From positions 1,280,001 to 1,344,000 of the forward strand of contig CP084166.1 in assembly GCA_021513695.1 (NCBI GenBank): 64,000 nt of DNA. The letters are read 5' to 3'. This document shows positions 9,217 through 33,635 of this stretch, piece after piece (position 1 is the stretch's first letter; each line of letters begins with the position of its first letter). This stretch comes from Candidatus Heimdallarchaeum aukensis (GTDB lineage: Archaea; Asgardarchaeota; Heimdallarchaeia; Heimdallarchaeales; Heimdallarchaeaceae). The position numbers and the translations under genes were made by a program. A model generated the notes under the pieces. That model saw nothing but the letters and a program-made list of their open reading frames with translations. It did not search any database and was not told the DNA's origin.

Positions 9217-9223
9217 AAAAAAA

Positions 9224-9335
9224 TTAGTACTTCCGAATTATCTCAAAAAGTATGAATTGAGAACACGCCAATGATAGTATGAACTCCTATAATTTTAACT
9301 TATAGAAATCAGTCAACTTATTGCGGAAGTACTAA
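9224..9335. mobile_element. MITE-like element copy A (~112 bp, 12-bp terminal inverted repeats TTAGTACTTCCG…CGGAAGTACTAA)
   Basis: The terminal inverted repeats are read directly from the sequence. A near-identical copy (1 mismatch) is present in reverse orientation at 33479-33590. Non-coding, AT-rich, with an internal sub-palindrome. Confidence 0.6.
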
Positions 9336-9378
9336 AAAATCTAATAATGTTTAAATATATCGAAACCAATTTTTTATT

Positions 9379-10137
9379 ATGAGTCAATCAGAGCTCCAGT
9401 TATCAGATATTTTTAGCGTAGATAAAGATGGAAAGCCCACAATCAAAATTGTTCTTTTTGGTCCCACCTTAGCTGGAAAAACCAGTATGCTTACCGTTTT
9501 TAATGCTTTAAGAAGAATGGAAGATCCAGATCTTATTGTAAGTTCTCTTACCAAAATCCAAGAATATGGTCGAACAGTTTTCTTTGATCACTCTGTTTTT
9601 CAAACACCACCTTTCAAAGGTAAGAAATTTGATCGTCTTCGTTATCATCTATGGACAGTTCCTGGGGAAGAGAGACATAAGGCCCAAAGAGATATTGTTA
9701 TGAGAGGTGTAGATGCTGTTTTACTATTTTTAAATTTTGAAAAAACTGCTTGGGATTCAAATGTTAAAACAGTGAAAGAAGCAAAAGCAAAAATAGGAGA
9801 AAAATTCGGGAAAAAGATTCCAGTTGTTGCGTATATTAATAAATCAGACCTTCCTCCTGAAGAGCGTACAGATAAGCGTGCGTTTATTACATTTTTACAA
9901 GATATTGAAGCTATTCCAAAAGAGAATGTTGCAAACTATATTATGACTGGTAGTTGTCTTAATGCTCGTAATGACTTATTAACCATCTTAAAATCAGAAA
10001 ATCGTGATGAATACCTTGAAAATGAAAGATTGAAAACTAGTAAGCGTCCTGATTCAGTTTGGTTAGTGGTACGACCTATTCAAAAGCTTACACAATTAGT
10101 CGTACAGCAAAGAATGGAAGTTCTACAAGGCATATAA
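9379..10137 (+). CDS. MglA-like small GTPase (Ras superfamily)
   Basis: P-loop KIVLFGPTLAGKTSML. G3 motif is TVPGE, the MglA-type TxxG(Q) variant with Thr in place of the canonical Asp and Glu at the MglA Gln position, within YHLWTVPGEERHKAQRDIVMRGVDAVLLF. G4 motif NKSD. Confidence 0.7.
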   Translation: MSQSELQLSDIFSVDKDGKPTIKIVLFGPTLAGKTSMLTVFNALRRMEDPDLIVSSLTKIQEYGRTVFFDHSVFQTPPFKGKKFDRLRYHLWTVPGEERHKAQRDIVMRGVDAVLLFLNFEKTAWDSNVKTVKEAKAKIGEKFGKKIPVVAYINKSDLPPEERTDKRAFITFLQDIEAIPKENVANYIMTGSCLNARNDLLTILKSENRDEYLENERLKTSKRPDSVWLVVRPIQKLTQLVVQQRMEVLQGI

Positions 10138-10254
10138 CCTTTTTTTATCTTTTTTTCACGATGTTTATATAGTATTTTCTAGATTATTGTTTAAAGTAAA
10201 TCAAGTGTCTAATTCGATACTTATAATGTAGTAAATATAAAAGGAGTAGATAAA

Positions 10255-21321: not shown

Positions 21322-22494
21322 ATGAGTAATGAAGTATATATAATTGGTACTGGACAAACAAAATTTGGTGAATTTTTTAATTTAAACATTGGTGATCTTG
21401 CTTCTGAAGCAGTTAACAAAGCTATTGAAAACGCGGGAATAGGAAAAGATGAGATAAGAACGCTATTTATTGGGTCAACAGTTTCTAACTCTCTTTCTCA
21501 ATCATCAATAGGCGGAATTTGTACTAGAAGTTGTAGTTTATCTTCTAACGCTTACAGGATTGAATCTGGAAATGCTAGTGGTGCAGCTGCATTCCACCAC
21601 GCTTTTTTAAGCATAAAAAGTGGGTTATATGACGTTGTTGCTGTATTAGGAATTGATAAATTATCAGATTATATCCAAAATGGAACAATTGAAAAAATTT
21701 TAGCTTCATCCATTGATTACCAATGGGAATACGAAATGGGAGCTACCCTCACAGGATTATACTCTTTTCTGACTCAAGCTCATATGGAAGAATATGGAAC
21801 AACATTAGAACAGCTAGCTTATATTCCAACGAAAAACCATCAAAATGGAGTTCTAAACCCAAAAGCTCAATATAGGTATGCTATCCCACTAGAAAAATTT
21901 CTTAATGCAAAAAGAATTGCTGACCCTATTGGAAGGTTTGATGTGGCTACACCTTGTGACGGTGCAGCAGTAGTAATATTAGCTTCTGAAAGATATATTG
22001 AAAATAAAAAACCACATTCTTACAAGGTAAAAATTCTCTCCTCATCAGCTGGTTCAGACACTTTAGCTTTGCAACACAGAGAAAAACTAACAGAGTTAAA
22101 AGCAACTAGACTGGCTGTTAACGATGCTTACAATAAAGCCAAAATTTCAGCAAATGATATTAATGTTGCAGAAGTACATGATTCACACCCAATTGGAGAG
22201 ATATTAGCAATAGAAGATCTTGGTTTGGTACCTAAAGGTGAAGGAGGAAAAGCAACTGTAGAAGGGTTGACTGCGCTAAACGGAAAGATAACTGTTAACC
22301 CAAGTGGAGGATTAAAAGCTAGGGGTGATCCTTTCGGAGCAACAGGAATTGCACAGTTAATAGAAATCGTTGAACAAATAAGAGGAAATGCTGGAAAAAG
22401 ACAAGTCGAGGATGTAAAATATGGGTTAACACAAAATGTCATGGGAACAGGGGTTATGTCCTATGTTTCTATTCTAGGGAGAGGTGATAATTAA
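21322..22494 (+). CDS. acetoacetyl-CoA thiolase (intact copy)
   Basis: Thiolase-fold motifs. The stop overlaps the start of the DUF35 gene (TAATG). Confidence 0.8.
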   Translation: MSNEVYIIGTGQTKFGEFFNLNIGDLASEAVNKAIENAGIGKDEIRTLFIGSTVSNSLSQSSIGGICTRSCSLSSNAYRIESGNASGAAAFHHAFLSIKSGLYDVVAVLGIDKLSDYIQNGTIEKILASSIDYQWEYEMGATLTGLYSFLTQAHMEEYGTTLEQLAYIPTKNHQNGVLNPKAQYRYAIPLEKFLNAKRIADPIGRFDVATPCDGAAVVILASERYIENKKPHSYKVKILSSSAGSDTLALQHREKLTELKATRLAVNDAYNKAKISANDINVAEVHDSHPIGEILAIEDLGLVPKGEGGKATVEGLTALNGKITVNPSGGLKARGDPFGATGIAQLIEIVEQIRGNAGKRQVEDVKYGLTQNVMGTGVMSYVSILGRGDN

Positions 22495-24244: not shown

Positions 24245-24562
24245 TATCTTATTTGAGTGACAATCCTATAAAAGGATAATGGAGTACATAGAAGCAGAGA
24301 AAAAGCTTTTTCCTTTCCATATGGTGTAAAGGATTAAGAGACTAAGAAATAAGATTTGATAAATCAAATTTTTTACTTAACTGATTTCATTCTCTTCTTT
24401 TACTCGATACATATTGCCAAAGTTATAAAAGTTTAATAATAACATAATTCTATGCGTTTTGTAACCCTTTAATTGCTTGTATTCATAGAAAGGTTAATTA
24501 CAAATTTTTATAATTGCATTTATAAAAAAGAAATATGAAATAATATAAATAGGCTTTTTAGT

Positions 24563-25447
24563 TTGAAAACGAGAATGATGAGTATTAAGTTATTAACAGA
24601 TTCTACAACATCCATACCAAAAAGTTTCCTTGATGAGAAGAATATAGCTATGTTAGAGTTATTAATTGAGATAGATGGCGAGCTAAAAAAGGAGATTTCA
24701 GATATTGATATTGACAAATTTATTGAACAAATAGAAAAAGCAGAGAAGCCGTATACTACTAGTATGAGTTCTCCTCAACATGTTATTGAAACTTTTAATT
24801 CAATAATTAAAGAAGGATACTCTACTATATTATATCCATATATGACTTCTCAAACATCTAGCCAAATTAATGCTGTTAACATAGCTAAAAAACATATTGA
24901 TGGAAAACTAGATATAAAATTTTATGACACACAACTAGCGGGGCCTGCAGTTGCACCATTTATTCTTTACGGAGAAAAAATGATTAAAGAGGAATTAAGT
25001 ATTGACGAAATTATAAAAGTTTTTGATAAACTAAAAGAAAAAATTTACACAATAGGTTTCTCTGAGAATTTCAATGCTTTATTCAGAACAGGAAAAGTCA
25101 AAAAGAATCTCAAAACACAAGTAGTTACAAACATGTTAAATCTCAAGCCCTTATTCCAAATTAGAGTTGGAAAAGGTGTTGAAGGATTTGGAGGAGGAAT
25201 AGGATTTAATGGAGCTGTAAAGAAGATTAAAGAAAAAATATTGGATGAAACTGATGAAAAAATAATCTACAATCTTATTCTAACACACTCTTATGCAAAG
25301 GAAAATGCTAAAATGTTAGAGAAGGAAATCAAGAAAATCAGGAAGATCAAAGAAGTAAACTATTTCACTATCCCTCCAGTAATTGTAAATACTGTAGGTA
25401 AAGGAGCAATAATAGCTACTTTATACCCAATCTATGAAAACATATAA
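24563..25447 (+). CDS. DegV family (fatty-acid-binding) protein
   Basis: KLLTDSTTSIP…TSMSSPQHV…YMTSQTSSQINAV…FYDTQLAGPAVAPFIL matches DegV hallmark blocks. Confidence 0.5.
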   Translation: MKTRMMSIKLLTDSTTSIPKSFLDEKNIAMLELLIEIDGELKKEISDIDIDKFIEQIEKAEKPYTTSMSSPQHVIETFNSIIKEGYSTILYPYMTSQTSSQINAVNIAKKHIDGKLDIKFYDTQLAGPAVAPFILYGEKMIKEELSIDEIIKVFDKLKEKIYTIGFSENFNALFRTGKVKKNLKTQVVTNMLNLKPLFQIRVGKGVEGFGGGIGFNGAVKKIKEKILDETDEKIIYNLILTHSYAKENAKMLEKEIKKIRKIKEVNYFTIPPVIVNTVGKGAIIATLYPIYENI

Positions 25448-25482
25448 AATAGATTTTTCTTCTTTTTTTGGTGATTACTTAA

Positions 25483-26343
25483 ATGAAAAAAAAAGGAAAA
25501 ACAAAGTTTGATTTACTAGGCATTTCAGAATTTGAAAAAATTAGTGAAGAGATATTTATTGAAATGTCTGATCACTCAATACTCAGAATTTTACATGTTT
25601 CAAGTGAAAAAGAAACTTCCTACACTCTTCTAGTTATTGCAGGTTGGGCATCCATCCCCTTGGGTTGGAATGACTTCTTACTGGAAGCAAAGAAGAACTT
25701 TGAAATTTTTTATTTAGAATCTAGAGAAAAGAAATCTAGCATCCTTCCGCAAGATTCAATAAATGATATTGAGAGAATGGCATTAGATATTTGTGAAACT
25801 GTTGAAAAACTTAATTTAAGGCAAGATAAATTAATACTGTTTAGTTCATCCTTTGGAACACTTCTAACAGCACATGCGCTCTCTTATAAAATGATTAATC
25901 CTTTGCTTACTGTTCTAATCGGCCCAATTGCGAAAGTTGAAATGCCACCGCTAATTGGCTATCTTATAAAATTTCTTCCAATTCCAATTTTACGCTTGTA
26001 TAAACCTTTTGGAAAATTATGGGTAAAGCTATTTAAGAGTGAATCAGAAGAACAAGCAGCAAAGTATCTTCGCGTATTGAAGGAAGCTGATGAAGTTAAA
26101 TGGAAGAAAATTGGAAAAGCAATCGCCCAAAAAGAATATTGGAATATTTATGAAAACATAAGCCGATATCCCACATTAGTAATCGATGAAAGTAACGATA
26201 AAATGCATAACACAGAAGTTACTAAAAAAATAACTTCATTGATCAAAACTGCTAAGTATGTTGACCTTCATACAAATTATTTTACACATTCCGCAGATAT
26301 GGCTCACTTTCTGCAAGATTTCTTAAAAAACCTAGAATTGTGA
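25483..26343 (+). CDS. hypothetical protein, possible alpha/beta-hydrolase fold
   Basis: Nucleophile-elbow-like FSSSFGT. The call is weak. Confidence 0.3.
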   Translation: MKKKGKTKFDLLGISEFEKISEEIFIEMSDHSILRILHVSSEKETSYTLLVIAGWASIPLGWNDFLLEAKKNFEIFYLESREKKSSILPQDSINDIERMALDICETVEKLNLRQDKLILFSSSFGTLLTAHALSYKMINPLLTVLIGPIAKVEMPPLIGYLIKFLPIPILRLYKPFGKLWVKLFKSESEEQAAKYLRVLKEADEVKWKKIGKAIAQKEYWNIYENISRYPTLVIDESNDKMHNTEVTKKITSLIKTAKYVDLHTNYFTHSADMAHFLQDFLKNLEL

Positions 26344-26544
26344 TACATTTTATGTGTTAGCTTAATTCTTTTTTCTTATTTGTCTGTCTCATTTGATAAT
26401 AAACACAAGCTTTTCTGGTTATAGTTATCGTTCATTTACTAGAAAACAAGATTAATATGCAAAGAGCTACAAAAAAATCAATTTGATTAAAATGGAAATG
26501 CTTATATTTAAATCTATTAGAGGAAACTTAAAGGTGAATAATCT

Positions 26545-26940
26545 ATGCCCTATCAATGGTTAAAAAGAAGCCGCAGAAAATTGTCAGGTGGATTAATTAA
26601 GAAAGCAGCATCAAAGAAAAAGCGAGACATGGGTCGATATCCAGCTGAAACACAAATAGGTGAAAGAAAGCTCAAGATTATAAGGACAAGAGGAGGAAAC
26701 ATAAAACAACGCCTATTACGTGATAATTACGCAAATATTTTCGATCCAGAAGAAAAGATCTCAAGAAAAGTTAAGATTACCAACGTTTTAGAGAACAAAG
26801 CAAACAGAGAGTATGCAAGAAGAAGAATCATTACAAAAGGTTGTATCATTGAAACTGAAATAGGTAATGCTAGAGTAACAAGCAGACCTGGACAAGATGG
26901 ACAAATTAACGCTGTTTTGATTGAAAAGAAAACAGATTAG
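26545..26940 (+). CDS. rps8e: ribosomal protein eS8
   Basis: …KLSGG…[17 protein letters not shown]…[33 protein letters not shown] is closely similar to archaeal S8e. Confidence 0.85.
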
Positions 26941-27005
26941 TTCTCAACCATTTTTAATTTATTTTTCTAAAAGCATTAATATTATTTCTATTATTAATTT
27001 GGATA

Positions 27006-27290
27006 TTATTTGAATCTCTTTTTCTTTTGCTTTCTTTTTTTCTTAGGCTGAAGAGAATATAATATTGTTTCAGGAGATAGATACTCTTGAGCTCCTTCTT
27101 TTAATTTTACGCTTACGTAAGGAGCTTTTACAGGACCAAAAATATCATTTACAACCCCTATATGGACCATTTTCTCTGTTACTACTGCGCTACCTATTTT
27201 AGGAAGTTTATCTGGAGATTTAATAATCAAATTTCCAAGATCACTAATGTGAAGGAATCTTCCTAATTTTTTGATTGGAGGGGCACTCAT
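27006..27290 (-). CDS. gar1: H/ACA RNP protein Gar1
   Basis: LGRFLHISDLGNLIIKS…PKIGSAVV…IGVVNDIFGPVKAPYVSVK Gar1 signature, with a basic K-rich tail. Confidence 0.75.
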   Translation of the reverse strand: MSAPPIKKLGRFLHISDLGNLIIKSPDKLPKIGSAVVTEKMVHIGVVNDIFGPVKAPYVSVKLKEGAQEYLSPETILYSLQPKKKRKQKKKRFK

Positions 27291-27296
27291 CTGTAA

Positions 27297-27623
27297 TCAC
27301 TTTTTCTTTTTTGGTTTTCCAGTTTGTTGTTTTTTCTTTAGTTTTCTTGCTATACTTGCAACATTATTAATTAATTCAGATTTATTTTTTACAGATTCTG
27401 GGTTTATTAGTATTCTTCCTTCACTATTCCACCAATTCTTAGAATATTTTTTTTCTTTTTCAACTATATGATCATAATTAAGATGTTTACATGCGAAAGC
27501 TATTTTTGCTAGAGAACAATCATCTACTGCCTTGTTTTTTGGTACTTTTCTTCCTTGATTTCGCGTAAGTTTCTTGTCAAAATATTCAGGATATAGGACG
27601 AAATACCTCTTTCTACGAAGCAT
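27297..27623 (-). CDS. srp19: signal recognition particle protein SRP19
   Basis: YPEYFDKKLTRNQGRKVPK motif and a basic C-terminus. Confidence 0.7.
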   Translation of the reverse strand: MLRRKRYFVLYPEYFDKKLTRNQGRKVPKNKAVDDCSLAKIAFACKHLNYDHIVEKEKKYSKNWWNSEGRILINPESVKNKSELINNVASIARKLKKKQQTGKPKKKK

Positions 27624-27743
27624 GATAAAAGTTTTGAAACTTTGCTAATAATCTTTTGGGTACTGAACCTAACCTTATTCACTAACAAAAAATCACAAAA
27701 AAGTTAATTCAATTAAAAAAGAAGAGAATAACATAGTTGGTAA

Positions 27744-28211
27744 TCATTTGATAAATTGTATTTCTTCTTCGATATAGTCAAATTCCTCAAATTTGAACTT
27801 CATTTTTTCTTGTTCTTCATGATTTATATCTTCAGAATAGATTAGCCATTCATTAAAAGCTTTGCATAATATTGGGTTGACGGGATTATTAATGCTGCAT
27901 TCGTGAATACGCTCACAAGTAAAGCATCTACAAACCATTGTGTCCCATCCTGTTTCTTCTTTACGAGGAATTGTGAGTAAATAATCTTTAACATTACCAA
28001 TTTCAACTGGGATTTTTAGGATTTTATTGTTATAAAGGAGTTCATCAATTTTCAATTTAATTGTTGAATGATCACCCAGTAAATCAAGTACTTCACTATG
28101 GAGCAATTTTTTCTCTTTTGTTAATTCGATTAGCTCAATAATTTCTTCTCCCAAAGCATTACTATAGCTTTGTTCTACCTTAATTCTTTGTTTAGGAATC
28201 ATAATTCTCAC
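27744..28211 (-). CDS. hypothetical protein (possible winged-helix N-terminus plus CRCFTCERIHEC zinc cluster)
   Basis: 155-aa ORF. Confidence 0.3.
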   Translation of the reverse strand: MRIMIPKQRIKVEQSYSNALGEEIIELIELTKEKKLLHSEVLDLLGDHSTIKLKIDELLYNNKILKIPVEIGNVKDYLLTIPRKEETGWDTMVCRCFTCERIHECSINNPVNPILCKAFNEWLIYSEDINHEEQEKMKFKFEEFDYIEEEIQFIK

Positions 28212-28395
28212 TCACAATGTTTTTAGATCACATTCTATGGACTATACTGTCACATAACTACGTTATCTCTTCAAAAGTTACTATGTAATTTACTATATTT
28301 AAATCTTCATACAGATTCAAAAAACGTATGTGTGTTTTATATGCACAGTATTTTGAAACTGCTCAAAAAATATATTTAAAATATTTAGAATAGAA

Positions 28396-29061
28396 ATGAA
28401 CCCTATTTCAATTTATCATTTTAAGCAAAATTTATCATTTAATAATTTAACAACAACAAAAGGGAAAGTGACCAAAGTGCCACATGATGCAGATTACTTC
28501 TATGATAAAGCAAAAAAACAAGGTTATCGTTCAAGAGCTTCTTATAAACTCTTGCAAATACATGAGAAATTTCATATTTTCAAAAAAAATCAGATAGTTG
28601 TCGATCTTGGCGCATCTCCAGGAGGATGGACTCAAGTTGCATCAGAAAAAGTAGGCAATAATGGTTTAGTTATTGCAATAGATAAAGCCTATATTCCTCC
28701 TTTAAATCTAAAAAACGTGGAAATTTTACAGATGGATATAATGAATGAAATAATAAGTGAATACTTGAAAGACAGATATGGGTTGGTAGATGTTTTATTA
28801 AGTGATTGTGCGCCTAATGTAAGCGGAAAATGGTCTCTTGACCATTCAATTCAAATTATGCTCGCAGAAAGAGCACTAAGAATAGCTGAAGATATCCTGA
28901 AAGACGAAGGTTGGATAGTTGTCAAAGTTTTTCAAGGAGATCAATTTGCTAATTTTATCTCTTATGCAAAAAAAGTCTTCACTACAGTAAAATTATTCAA
29001 ACCACAAGCTTCAAGAAAGAAAAGCGCAGAAATTTATCTGGTTGCAAATACTAAAAGCTAA
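28396..29061 (+). CDS. rRNA 2'-O-methyltransferase FtsJ/RrmJ
   Basis: RSRASYKLLQI…VVDLGASPGGWTQVA SAM-MTase motifs. Confidence 0.85.
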   Translation: MNPISIYHFKQNLSFNNLTTTKGKVTKVPHDADYFYDKAKKQGYRSRASYKLLQIHEKFHIFKKNQIVVDLGASPGGWTQVASEKVGNNGLVIAIDKAYIPPLNLKNVEILQMDIMNEIISEYLKDRYGLVDVLLSDCAPNVSGKWSLDHSIQIMLAERALRIAEDILKDEGWIVVKVFQGDQFANFISYAKKVFTTVKLFKPQASRKKSAEIYLVANTKS

Positions 29062-29081
29062 AGACAAAGAGAGATATAAAT

Positions 29082-30263
29082 ATGAATAAGGAATTATGGG
29101 TTGAAATTAAAGAGGGAAAAACATCTTTCTTTCTAAAGAAAGATTCTGAAACTATCTATGATGCTTCTGTTTTTTACAACCCTAAAATGTCTATAAATAG
29201 AGATTTAGCTCTTTTGCATCTTTATACGATTGGAAATATAACAAAAAAAGGATTAATCATTATTGACCCTTTTGCAGGCTCAGGAATTAGAAGCTTTAGG
29301 ATAATTAATGAGCTTCCTAAAGAATATGTTAAGAAAATAATAATTTCAGATATAAGCGACAGAGCAATTAAGAATGTGAAATTAAATATTGAAAAGTTAT
29401 TCAATGACAAAAGAATTGTTGTTCATCGTGAAGATGCATTTAACATTATAGCTAAACAAATTTTAGATAAAGAAAATATTGATGTTATTGATCTTGACCC
29501 ATTTGGGACACCTATTTCATTTATTGATATAGCTGTTAGAGCTTTGGTAAAAAAAAGCGGATATTTGTTTTTAACTGCAACAGATCATCAAGTTTTGTGC
29601 GGTAAAGAGAAATCTACTTGTTTAAGAGAATATAACAGCAATTCAACAAATAATTATCTGTGTCATGAAATAGCTTTAAGGATTCTAATTTACAATATTT
29701 TGACAAGTTCTGGACGAATTGGTGCGTATGCTGAACCTATACTAGCTCTGCAATTTGAACATTTTTTCAGAATTCACGTAAGAATTGAAAAAGGAAAAAA
29801 AAGAGCAAATGAACAACATAAGGAGATAGGTTTTGTTTATGTTTGTGCTTATTGTAGTTTTTTTGAAACAGAGAGATTAAAAGAAAAAAAGAATTTACAA
29901 AAATGTCCAACATGTAACAAAGAGCTAGAAAAAGTAGGGCCTTTATGGCTAGGGCCTTTAGGAAATAAGAAAAAGGTAGGGGATCTTCTCAACTTTTTAG
30001 ATGAAATTGAATTTGAGCATAATAACAAGAAAAAAATTAATTTAATGTTATCAACATTCAAAGAAGAGATTGAACTCCCTCCAATGTTCTACAACTTACC
30101 TTTTTTATACAAAAAATATAAGAAAAATGGTGTTTCTCCTAATGAAATGATAAACAGATTAGAAAAAAGAGGATATAAGACCACAAGAACAATCTTCGAT
30201 TTTCAATCAATAAGAACAGAGGCACCATATTACGTTGTACATAATGAAATAAAGAAATTATAA
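29082..30263 (+). CDS. trm1: tRNA (guanine26-N2)-dimethyltransferase Trm1
   Basis: DPFAGSGIRSFR and DLDPFGTP motifs, with C-terminal Cys pairs. Confidence 0.85.
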   Translation: MNKELWVEIKEGKTSFFLKKDSETIYDASVFYNPKMSINRDLALLHLYTIGNITKKGLIIIDPFAGSGIRSFRIINELPKEYVKKIIISDISDRAIKNVKLNIEKLFNDKRIVVHREDAFNIIAKQILDKENIDVIDLDPFGTPISFIDIAVRALVKKSGYLFLTATDHQVLCGKEKSTCLREYNSNSTNNYLCHEIALRILIYNILTSSGRIGAYAEPILALQFEHFFRIHVRIEKGKKRANEQHKEIGFVYVCAYCSFFETERLKEKKNLQKCPTCNKELEKVGPLWLGPLGNKKKVGDLLNFLDEIEFEHNNKKKINLMLSTFKEEIELPPMFYNLPFLYKKYKKNGVSPNEMINRLEKRGYKTTRTIFDFQSIRTEAPYYVVHNEIKKL

Positions 30264-30265
30264 GG

Positions 30266-30943
30266 GTGATATTAATTCAAAAAATAATAGTAGGAATAGA
30301 TGAAGCTGGACGAGGACCAGTGCTAGGACCACTAGTCATTTGCGCCTATGCAATTGAAAAAAAAGATTTAGATCAATTACAAATTTTAGGGGCAAAAGAT
30401 TCAAAGATGCTATCTAAAAGCAAGAGAACAGATCTATATCAGAAATTAATTGATATTGCTGTTGATTATAAGACTATCCACCTATCTGCATCGGAAATTG
30501 ATGAAATGAGAAAAAATACAAGTTTAAATGATATTGAACAAAAAATTATGATAAAAGCTGTATTAGGATTAAAGGTTAAACCTTCAGAAATATACATTGA
30601 TGCAGCAGATGTAAAAGAAGAAAGGTTTGGTCTACTATTTAAGAACTATTTTCCAAAAGCTAAAATAGTCTCAAAACATGGAGCAGATAAAACCTTTCCT
30701 GTTGTTTCTGCCGCATCTATTATAGCTAAAGTAGAACGAGATAGAGAAATTGAAAAAATAAAAGAAGAAACAGGAGTTAACATTGGTTCAGGCTATCCTT
30801 CGGATCCTAAAACAAAGAAATTCTTAAATGAATATTATAAGAAACATAAAAAATTCCCTTCTTTTGCTAGAGAATCATGGGATACATGCAAAAAAATAAA
30901 AGAAAAGGATGTACAACAAGCTAAAATAAACGAATACCTTTAG
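30266..30943 (+). CDS. rnhB: ribonuclease HII
   Basis: IVGIDEAGRGPVLGPLVI catalytic motif. Confidence 0.9.
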   Translation: MILIQKIIVGIDEAGRGPVLGPLVICAYAIEKKDLDQLQILGAKDSKMLSKSKRTDLYQKLIDIAVDYKTIHLSASEIDEMRKNTSLNDIEQKIMIKAVLGLKVKPSEIYIDAADVKEERFGLLFKNYFPKAKIVSKHGADKTFPVVSAASIIAKVERDREIEKIKEETGVNIGSGYPSDPKTKKFLNEYYKKHKKFPSFARESWDTCKKIKEKDVQQAKINEYL

Positions 30944-30954
30944 AGATGTGATTA

Positions 30955-31590
30955 ATGGACGAAAAAAATTTAGAAGAATCCTCTATTGAAGATTTTTGGA
31001 AGAAAAGTTCTCCGACCAGAGATTTAATAATTGTTTTCACTGTTATTTACCTGATTCTTACAATATTATCACTAACTTTTTTTGTAGACACAGGATATAC
31101 TGGCATTGTCAAAGTAATTTCAATTAGTCGAATCGTCTTAGAATGGACAGGACAGTATAATTTGTTAGTATTTAAAGGGTACATTTACGAGCTATTTAGC
31201 GCAATTTTTGTTCATGCGAATTTATTACATTTATTATCTAATCTCTTATTCTTCCTAATTTATGGATTAAGAGCAGATGAGAGACTATATACAAAACATT
31301 TTTACATCATATTTATTTTCTCTGCATTATTAGGAAATCTATTTACTCTAGTAGTTTATCCAGTAAATACTGTTTCTTGTGGAGCTTCAGGAGGTGTTTT
31401 TGGGTTACTTGGAGCTGACTTGATTCTGGCTTATGAAGAGGATGAAAACAGATCAATTTGGACTTATCTGGCTTCAGGTGCTATATTTTTATTTATATCT
31501 GCAGGAGTAAATGTGAATAGTTTAGCGCACGGTATTGGACTAGTTTCTGGAATAATATTAACCCTTTTTATTATTAAAAAGAGAAAGTGA
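30955..31590 (+). CDS. rhomboid-family intramembrane serine protease
   Basis: Multi-TM protein. GASGGVFGLLGA (GxSG) and a downstream AHGIG histidine. Confidence 0.65.
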   Translation: MDEKNLEESSIEDFWKKSSPTRDLIIVFTVIYLILTILSLTFFVDTGYTGIVKVISISRIVLEWTGQYNLLVFKGYIYELFSAIFVHANLLHLLSNLLFFLIYGLRADERLYTKHFYIIFIFSALLGNLFTLVVYPVNTVSCGASGGVFGLLGADLILAYEEDENRSIWTYLASGAIFLFISAGVNVNSLAHGIGLVSGIILTLFIIKKRK

Positions 31591-31695
31591 AAGAAAGCAG
31601 TTTAATTTTAAATAAACAAGCCAAAGTAGATTTAAATAGCCTAGTACAAACAGAAGATTTATTTGTTTAAATTGGATTAGAAACTAAGATTCAAG

Positions 31696-32856
31696 ATGAT
31701 TCCGTACCATGTACAAGTTTTGTTAACTAATGTACCAAACATCGAAGAAGTGTCAATCAAAGAACTTATCGAATTAGATGTGAAAAAAATTAAAGGTATT
31801 GGTGACAAATATGCAAAGGTCTTGTACAGAAAAGGAATCAAGAAAGTAAAAGATTTAGCAAAGTTAGATTCTCAAGAAATAGATTTACCCGAAAAAATAG
31901 TTACTAAATGGATAGTTGCTGCAAGAATTATCGTTAATTCACAAAAAGTTCGCAGAACTGGAAAAATTATTTTCTCAGGTCTATCTCAAGCTGGAAAAAC
32001 AAGTATTGTTTATGTATTAAAGTCAATTGTTGAACTGCCTACAGTAACAATGGGGGTAAAACAAGATTTCATTAAATTTGCAGGGCACAATATTCAAATT
32101 TCAGATATGGGAGGACAAAAAAGATTTCGTGAGATTTACCTAACTACCCCTGATTTGTATTTTGAAAGAACAAAATTGGTTTTCTATGTAATTGATATTC
32201 AAAATAAAAAAAGAATAGATGATTCTCTCGAATATCTGAAAAGATTACTTGCAATTTACCGTTACTTGCACGAAAAACCGTTCATTTCTATCTTTTTCCA
32301 CAAATTTGATCCTGATTTATCCTACAACTTAAAATATGATATTCCACCCATAAAGGAGAAAATAGAGAAAATTTTTTCTCACTATACCGAATTTCAGTAC
32401 AATTTTTTCTACACTTCTATTTACAACCCACCTAGCATATACGTGGGAATTGCTTCAACTCTATCAGAGATATTTCCAGTAATGAGTATTTTAGACGTTT
32501 TACTTAAGGATTTTGCAGAATTACACGGTTTTGATGGTTTACTTATAATGGATAGTACAGGAATGTTAATTGGTCAATTCATACGAGGAGAACAAGAATC
32601 ATTGGTGGAAGAAACCTATTCTGCTTTTAAAGAAGCAAGAAAGATTGAAAAAAACCCTTTCGGCAATATTGTTTTACGAAAAAATATAGCAGACCCTCCA
32701 GGAGGAGAGATAGTTGTACAACAAATCTTTTTACCACACAATGATGGTTTTATCTTTTACTGGAAAAAAGAAGATACTGAAATTGATTTATCAGAGTATA
32801 TGTTAAGTGAGATAACAAAAACCCTTAATCCATGGTTGTATAACCTATTATCGTGA
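31696..32856 (+). CDS. Rag/Arf-like small GTPase with N-terminal HhH-like extension and C-terminal roadblock/LC7-like domain
   Basis: P-loop GLSQAGKTS, DMGGQ (DxxGQ), HKFD instead of NKxD as in Rag/Gtr. C-terminal …FDGLLIMDSTGMLIGQF… is roadblock-like. N-terminal IKGIGDKYAKVLYRKGIKKVKDLAKL is HhH-like. Confidence 0.55.
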   Translation: MIPYHVQVLLTNVPNIEEVSIKELIELDVKKIKGIGDKYAKVLYRKGIKKVKDLAKLDSQEIDLPEKIVTKWIVAARIIVNSQKVRRTGKIIFSGLSQAGKTSIVYVLKSIVELPTVTMGVKQDFIKFAGHNIQISDMGGQKRFREIYLTTPDLYFERTKLVFYVIDIQNKKRIDDSLEYLKRLLAIYRYLHEKPFISIFFHKFDPDLSYNLKYDIPPIKEKIEKIFSHYTEFQYNFFYTSIYNPPSIYVGIASTLSEIFPVMSILDVLLKDFAELHGFDGLLIMDSTGMLIGQFIRGEQESLVEETYSAFKEARKIEKNPFGNIVLRKNIADPPGGEIVVQQIFLPHNDGFIFYWKKEDTEIDLSEYMLSEITKTLNPWLYNLLS

Positions 32857-32929
32857 AATAATTTAGATATCAATAGTCTTTAATAAAGAAATACTTTTTA
32901 ATCTATCAAATTCTTTCTGGTTAATTTAA

Positions 32930-33448
32930 ATGAAAGATAACGAATATGACCAAGAAAATAGTGGAACCAAAATTGCAAGAATTCACTTAAATGGAAAAGT
33001 AGAAGTGTTAAAAAACATTCATTTCTCTTGCAGCTCTTGTGGAGTATGTTGTAGACTTAATCGTATTCCTGTAAGAGAGGAAGATATTTTACGTTTTCAA
33101 GAACATGGTTTTGAACTAGATCAGCTATTAATTGACTTGAGCCCTGTTCTAATTCCAAGTAAAAATGTTGATGGCAATTTTATAAAAGCATATATTTTAA
33201 GGAAAAAACCATTTGTAAATGAATGTATTTTTTTGGACGATAACAATCGCTGTAGAGTTCATGAATTTAAGCCATTAGCTTGTAGACTCTATCCTTTTGC
33301 TTTAAGAAGAGAAAATGATGAAACAGTAATTATGCAAATTCATTCAAAATCTGTTTGTCCTTCAGTAAAACTAGATGTATCTGAAGAAGAATCAAATACT
33401 TTAGAATTGGTAAAACAAATGTACGAGTTATTTGATTTAGAGGAATAA
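32930..33448 (+). CDS. YkgJ/UPF0153-type putative Zn/Fe-chelating Cys-cluster protein
   Basis: CSSCGVCC…C…C…C pattern. Confidence 0.5.
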   Translation: MKDNEYDQENSGTKIARIHLNGKVEVLKNIHFSCSSCGVCCRLNRIPVREEDILRFQEHGFELDQLLIDLSPVLIPSKNVDGNFIKAYILRKKPFVNECIFLDDNNRCRVHEFKPLACRLYPFALRRENDETVIMQIHSKSVCPSVKLDVSEEESNTLELVKQMYELFDLEE

Positions 33449-33478
33449 AAGTATACAATACATTTTTCTATCATTTGT

Positions 33479-33590
33479 CTAGTACTTCCGCAATAAGTTG
33501 ACTGATTTCTATAGGTTAAAATTATAGGAGTTCATACTATCATTGGCGTGTTCTCAATTCATACTTTTTGAGATAATTCGGAAGTACTAA
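33479..33590. mobile_element. MITE-like element copy B (reverse complement of copy A, 107/108 identical in core)
   Basis: By my own comparison, the reverse complement of 33481-33590 equals 9226-9335 with one T/C difference. Confidence 0.6.
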
Positions 33591-33635
33591 TTTGTCATAG
33601 AAAAATCTAAAAGCAATAAATGCTCAATTATAGTT

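Follow-up and report, generated by a model that had tools for sequence, protein, structure and literature searches.

A 110-bp inverted-repeat element of the Heimdallarchaeum lineage, very probably a MITE derived from an ISH3-like insertion sequence

The SM MITEs of Sulfolobus belong to the archaeal miniature inverted-repeat transposable elements (MITEs) that derive from insertion sequences (ISs). Such IS-derived elements are well known in archaea (PMC7002104; PMC13343696), and those reported here resemble the MITEHsal elements of Halobacterium salinarum. Like our element, MITEHsal is small and non-coding, carries the terminal inverted repeats of a resident IS and is flanked by target-site duplications; it is likewise multi-copy and polymorphic among strains, breaks short-read assemblies and reflects an internal deletion of the IS (PMC7002104). 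The autonomous partner described below finds its counterpart in the ISH3 family of the IS4 superfamily. It is an IS of 1218 bp with one ORF and a DDE transposase whose best NCBIfam match, ISH3, spans the whole profile, and it shares with that family a Y-(2)-R-(3)-E-(3)-R motif, ends of the form xRGT and AT-rich duplications with a T...A asymmetry between the flanks (PMC2266710). The motif is the form that YREK takes in ISH3 (De Palmenaer et al. 2008, PMC2266710), and duplications in ISH3 have A on one flank and T on the other (PMC2266710).

Mobile elements of the Heimdallarchaeia, the archaea that are most often placed beside eukaryotes, have so far been described mainly as transposase gene families. 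For the genomes of Ca. Heimdallarchaeum endolithica and Ca. Heimdallarchaeum aukensis, Wu et al. 2022 (PMC8813620) report that dispersed repeats are abundant and that there are 11 families of transposases/integrases, reaching up to 27 copies in a genome. Here we examine a pair of short inverted repeats in a 64-kb window, the whole stretch of DNA that was analysed, from a Heimdallarchaeum-like Asgard host. We conclude, with a probability of about 94%, that the repeats are recent insertions of a non-autonomous MITE derived from an ISH3-like IS.

Two insertions in the window

Direct reading and a repeat finder both give 9225-9334 as the reverse complement of 33480-33589, 110 nt in each case with one mismatch, a T at 9300 against the equivalent of the C at 33514. 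This confirms the claim of the sequence-only reading that two near-identical copies lie in inverted orientation 24 kb apart and differ by a single T/C. The boundaries in that reading (9224-9335 and 33479-33590) prove one base too wide at each end, and its 12-bp terminal inverted repeat shortens to 11 bp when only perfect pairing is counted, with an imperfect extension that matches at 14 of 16 positions. The outermost bases 9224, 9335, 33479 and 33590 belong to the flank or target-site duplication, which explains the T/C ambiguity in the earlier repeat. The 11-bp end motif occurs exactly four times in the window, where 0.41 occurrences would be expected even with one mismatch allowed. Neither the repeat finder nor the end-motif scan detected any further full or partial copy in the 64 kb.

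The element has no coding capacity, its sole ORF being an 8-codon remnant of a transposase start. Both copies are intergenic and lie just upstream of start codons, as had been claimed, at measured distances of 44 nt (copy 1) and 46 nt (copy 2) rather than 43-45 bp. Within the element, a CTATA(A/G)-N7-TTATAG sub-palindrome had also been noted. It is perfect in copy 1 and imperfect in copy 2, which has the family consensus C there, and the stretch corresponds to codons 3-9 of the parent transposase gene. We rejected CTATAA-N7-TTATAG as a functional feature on both grounds, its restriction in perfect form to copy 1 and its origin in transposase codons.

Table 1. Features of the two MITE copies and their surroundings in the window.
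Feature	Position	Strand	Details
MITE copy 1	9225..9334	+	110 bp; repeat finder and direct reading
Genes flanking copy 1			744-aa gene, stop codon 9198; MglA/Roc-like small GTPase gene, start 9379
Left terminal inverted repeat, copy 1	9225..9235	+	TAGTACTTCCG
Right terminal inverted repeat, copy 1	9324..9334	+	CGGAAGTACTA
Left target-site duplication, copy 1	9219..9224	+	AAAAAT; read directly; single in L118 empty site
Right target-site duplication, copy 1	9335..9340	+	AAAAAT; read directly; single in L118 empty site
Remnant of parent transposase gene, copy 1	9279..9305	+	ATG, 7 more sense codons, stop
MITE copy 2	33480..33589	-	110 bp; orientation opposite to copy 1
Genes flanking copy 2			YkgJ/CxxCxxCC gene, end 33448; S8 peptidase gene, start 33636
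Left target-site duplication, copy 2	33473..33479	+	ATTTGTC, 7 bp; single in L152
Right target-site duplication, copy 2	33590..33596	+	ATTTGTC, 7 bp; single in L152

Relatives 86-99% identical to the window have these sites unoccupied. At site 1, window positions 9224 and 9334 are joined directly, with 7 nt of overlap, in the JGI contig L118 (96-99% identical), where the sequence T8-A7-TCTAA stands once, against ...A7T-(MITE)-A5T-CTAA in the window, so that AAAAAT is duplicated there. The site is unoccupied too in the more distant relatives L148 and L149, with gene order unchanged. At site 2, two independent contigs (L152 and L153, 94.5% identical) join 33479 to 33590, again with a 7-nt overlap, and have a single ATTTGTC against ATTTGTC-(MITE)-ATTTGTC in the window. 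Filled and empty sites were compared by BLAST coordinates and direct reading, global MAFFT alignments being uninformative across the large indel. One copy in Ca. H. endolithica PR6 (L115:3809-3918) sits in a spacer that is MITE-free in the window; this comparison shows the absence of the copy from the window, the spacer being too diverged to give a clean empty site. MITE copies are thus not syntenic between the species.

Both window insertions are recent: a single nucleotide of the 110 distinguishes the copies, and the nearest relatives lack them. The recent mobility proposed from the sequence alone is thereby borne out, and the flanks singled out for inspection do contain target-site duplications (AAAAAT at copy 1, ATTTGTC at copy 2). 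The syntenic conservation that would have spoken for another kind of element did not appear: relatives are MITE-free at both sites, and the L115 copy is unmatched. In the Logan assembly SRR15988954, a short-read assembly of the window strain, contigs 100% identical to the window break inside both copies, L119 starting 30 nt before the end of copy 1 and L120 stopping 30 nt into copy 2, as assemblies commonly do at repeats.

Dispersed copies, target sites and an autonomous partner

Searches of a genome collection with a 16-nt degenerate end, and of metagenomes with a 30-nt left-end pattern, added at least 13 copies, at intergenic sites other than those of the window, from Ca. Heimdallarchaeum endolithica PR6 (CP084167.1) and from metagenomes, so that the check for copies at unrelated sites came out positive. 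We tabulated 16 complete copies of 108-110 bp, two of which represent one locus in two samples, and one truncated copy. Two are in the window, at least five in PR6 and ten in JGI metagenome contigs, the last representing nine distinct loci. Window and PR6 copies are 96-97% identical. Both flanks are available for 15 complete copies, and the direct repeats measure 6 bp in 11 of these, 7 bp in two and 5 bp in one, with one degenerate case. Among the genome-scan matches listed, many fall in unrelated bacteria with one match each, and one contig has two on the same strand. Viral contigs scanned for the 16-nt end gave lone matches only, never a pair; we took these as chance, and they give no evidence of an element riding on viruses.

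A sister Heimdallarchaeaceae MAG, CAZHRF01, whose MglA-like orthologue is 73% identical to that of the window, carries ~108-bp MITEs with 11-16-nt ends in common with ours, an unrelated interior and 5-bp duplications, a further likeness to ISH3 (contigs L006, L037, L063, L066, L067, L069, L080, L089 and L114). Ends shared despite an unrelated interior suggest that the ends are the conserved, presumably transposase-bound, part. In the MAGs JAHLWR01 and DAOVER01, contigs match the same end within ~140 nt of the contig end.

Pre-insertion sites were reconstructed for 15 insertions, using flanks that include 9203-9224/9335-9356 and 33457-33479/33590-33612 in the window and loci L044-L132. Every site (15/15) has T at -7 and -6 before the duplication and A at +6 and +7 after it. 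Once the sites are symmetrised, TT stands at -7/-6 in all 30 half-sites, against only ~1.7% of window positions that fit TT-N16-AA. The target consensus is AAnTTTTTyTnn-(N6)-nnArAAAAAnTT, with TTTTTyT-nn-(N6)-nn-ArAAAAA as its core. Several insertion sites read TTTTCTAT-N6-ATAGAAAA. A palindromic target suggests that the transposase complex is symmetric.

All 15 copies examined are intergenic and lie outside ORFs. Thirteen distances to a neighbouring start codon were obtained; the shortest is 42 nt, and six fall at 42-47 nt. The copies concerned include those of the window (with downstream spacers 9335-9378 and 33590-33635) and L075, L115, L128, L130 and L131. Orientation to the neighbouring gene varies, with copy 2, L075 and L115 facing away. 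In the window, the insertions lie between the stop codon and T-tract of the upstream gene and a downstream putative TATA/BRE region that is left intact, and beyond copy 1 the downstream spacer hardly differs from that of the empty allele. These positions are consistent with insertions that survive only just upstream of the core promoter, at genes with short or absent leaders.

The sequence-only reading had predicted an autonomous partner with the same inverted repeats. No transposase homologue lies within the 64-kb window, and the prediction holds instead in the sister species PR6 and in metagenome contigs. The PR6 element (L044:308-1525) is 1218 bp long, has the terminal repeats of the MITE and a 7-bp duplication, AATTTTA, and contains a single intact ORF for a 381-aa DDE transposase. 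This protein matches Pfam DDE_Tnp_1 at E = 1e-9. Its best NCBIfam match is ISH3 (NF033541; E = 5.4e-39; profile positions 2-298 of 298) at 134 bits, a score below the curated ISH3 cut-off of 225 bits. Residues 293-307 carry the motif YCHRWGIETSYRLLK, read as Y-x2-R-x3-E-x3-R/x6-K with E299 as the glutamate, and local motifs, rather than a family alignment, point to D128 and D204 as candidate catalytic aspartates. At 90% identity the transposase clusters with UJG42406.1, UJG43520.1 and UJG43563.1 of PR6 and UJG40423.1 of H. aukensis, all of them annotated in the genomes of PMC8813620; more distant homologues, at 27-31% identity, are named ISH3 family transposases by NCBI.

A second IS copy (L126:78-1297, 94% identical) stands alone on a 1.3-kb metagenome contig and is frameshifted. 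The frameshift stems from a single base missing in an A-run near codon 18 and could reflect either a decayed copy or an assembly error. There is also a partial IS copy at a contig end (L125), and another Heimdall MAG has a diverged IS, 38% identical, with the same ends (L040).

Aligned with the IS ends, the MITE proves to be ~92 nt from the left end of the IS fused to ~18 nt from its right end. The left part comprises the terminal repeat, the untranslated 5' region and ~13 initial codons; the junction falls at a short microhomology, GTCAA/GTCTAA. One metagenome MITE (L123) is even closer to the left end of the IS. An internal deletion of the ~1.22-kb IS very probably generated the MITE, and the DDE transposase of the parent (ISH3-like, IS4 superfamily) may then move it in trans. 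The transposase would bind the common 11-bp ends (14/16 with mismatches) and cut the AT-rich palindromic target with a stagger of 6 bp, in some cases 5 or 7. Presence/absence polymorphism among strains counts indirectly in favour of such trans mobilisation, which we infer from these sequence comparisons.

Alternative explanations and local rearrangements

The best-supported reading is that of a selfish non-autonomous transposon, probably moved in trans, whose insertions would be neutral. The repeat is small and non-coding with terminal inverted repeats, and every prediction of the MITE interpretation offered at the outset that could be checked was borne out: duplications with empty sites, dispersed copies and a transposase-encoding relative with the same ends. 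This interpretation has to be weighed against a structured non-coding RNA gene, or a cis-regulatory element kept by selection upstream of particular genes. Both strands fold well (-25.4 and -30.7 kcal/mol; z = -3.95 and -4.85), and both window copies lie ~45 nt upstream of start codons, as such an element might. The terminal inverted repeats account for the fold, however, because a terminal stem and internal hairpins follow from inverted ends in any element of this type. Nor did Rfam return a match, either for the whole window at gathering thresholds or for the locus at E <= 1, and a tRNA scan with ARAGORN found nothing. The interior is the 5' end of a transposase gene, and the sister MAG has elements with the same ends around an unrelated interior. 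Target-site duplications flank the element, which occurs in either orientation to the neighbouring gene. The same spacers are MITE-free in relatives 86-99% identical, in which the downstream promoter regions are otherwise nearly identical. A selected RNA or regulatory element is, on these grounds, hardly credible.

A different possibility is that the MITEs, once inserted, were co-opted and alter expression of the small GTPase and S8 peptidase genes. They could do so through a retained transposase promoter, through displaced upstream elements or through hairpin formation. The MITE does keep a 54-nt stretch that must hold the promoter of the parent transposase, together with the ATG, and this leader points to the GTPase gene in copy 1; the start-codon distances, clustered at 42-47 nt in 6 of 13 with none shorter, would fit as well. 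Yet the leader points away from the peptidase gene in copy 2, orientation is inconstant (also at L075 and L115), and the insertions are polymorphic among near-identical strains and so not fixed. The 42-nt minimum, moreover, is what one would expect if, in a compact genome with short leaders, purifying selection removes insertions that disrupt promoters. Co-option is therefore clearly unlikely in our judgement, although the insertions may have a regulatory side-effect.

The inverted copies might also have recombined already, inverting the 24-kb segment between them, an outcome that the sequence-only reading had raised as something they could mediate. The copies are 99% identical and suitably oriented, and part of the interval, ~24.25-33.45 kb, has the opposite orientation in a more distant relative, one breakpoint falling in the spacer of copy 2. 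The other end of that inversion lies at ~24.25 kb, however, and not at copy 1. The junction of the 744-aa gene with the GTPase gene is MITE-free in L118, L148 and L149, as is that of the CxxCxxCC gene with the S8 peptidase gene in L152 and L153. Because MITE-free relatives have both junctions, the window arrangement is ancestral at both ends; and because L152 and L153 have the window junction without a MITE, the ~24.25-33.45 kb inversion is older than copy 2. Each copy, furthermore, keeps its own matching target-site duplication, and recombination would have swapped them. An inversion through the copies is accordingly highly improbable as a past event, and what stands of the earlier suggestion is the potential for one.

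The distant relative that shows the inversion of ~24250-33450 is contig Ga0366833_1001624, the segment having been compared with L154 and L149. The window shows several other local features. A block comprising SRP19, Gar1 and a 152-aa gene lies on opposite strands in L120:77-1273 and L154:133-1402, a second small inversion. At 14083-22470 there is a ~4.19-kb tandem duplication (units ~14.1-18.29 kb and 18.29-22.47 kb; 97% over a 300-nt stretch), which by a relative's gene calls spans a partial S8 peptidase gene and the genes for HMG-CoA synthase and thiolase; Ga0366833_1001624 has a single copy of this unit. Eukaryote-like signature proteins are encoded at 9379-11301, where the MglA/Roc-like small GTPase is followed by an actin-like ALP/MreB-type ATPase, and at 31696-32856, where there is an Arf/Rag-like GTPase with an N-terminal HhH domain.

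Possible spread between species and relation to known elements

The window has ~31% G+C. In two stretches compared, it is collinear with PR6 at 82-87% nucleotide identity, and its MglA-like protein shares 71% identity with the orthologue in Ca. H. aukensis AB_125; on these figures we rejected both as the source of the window and regard the host as a third Heimdallarchaeum-like Asgard archaeon. H. endolithica and H. aukensis have IS transposases at least 90% identical to each other. An element at 96-97% identity and a transposase at or above 90%, set against far more diverged host genes, suggest recent horizontal spread. A broader proposal, that TT-N16-AA insertion is targeted just upstream of archaeal core promoters and is combined with horizontal spread among co-occurring Heimdallarchaeum species, is tentative and rather unlikely. 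If true, it would describe a mobile element that inserts close to promoters, crosses between species and can rewire the expression of eukaryote-like signature genes, such as that for a small GTPase, in the closest archaeal relatives of eukaryotes.

For the MITE itself, the findings document in Heimdallarchaeia a MITE paired with an autonomous IS, with ends, duplications, empty sites, parent and target motif. The copies explain breaks in short-read assemblies and provide strain-level presence/absence markers for Heimdallarchaeum populations, and as 110-bp inverted repeats they could support rearrangements. The text of PMC8813620 contains none of the terms MITE, insertion sequence, ISH3 or inverted repeat, and it describes neither the MITE nor the ends, duplications and target motif that go with it; within the library searched, no paper combined 'Asgard' with 'miniature inverted-repeat transposable'. 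What is new is the documentation of the element in the Heimdallarchaeum lineage; it is of an ordinary kind and involves no new mechanism.

Its partner departs from the described ISH3 family in several respects. Duplications are 6-7 bp here and 4-5 bp in the family, the ends read TAGT rather than CRGT, so that the first base is T and not C, and the length of 1218 bp lies just below the family range of 1225-1500 bp (PMC2266710). The profile score falls short of the curated cut-off, identity to ISH3-named proteins is 27-31%, and the lysine of YREK is present here. The MITE in turn is much shorter than MITEHsal2, whose copies measure 405-413 bp (PMC7002104) against 110 bp here. What sets it apart from the known archaeal IS-derived MITEs is its Heimdallarchaeum-like Asgard host and its well-defined palindromic T-tract/A-tract target.
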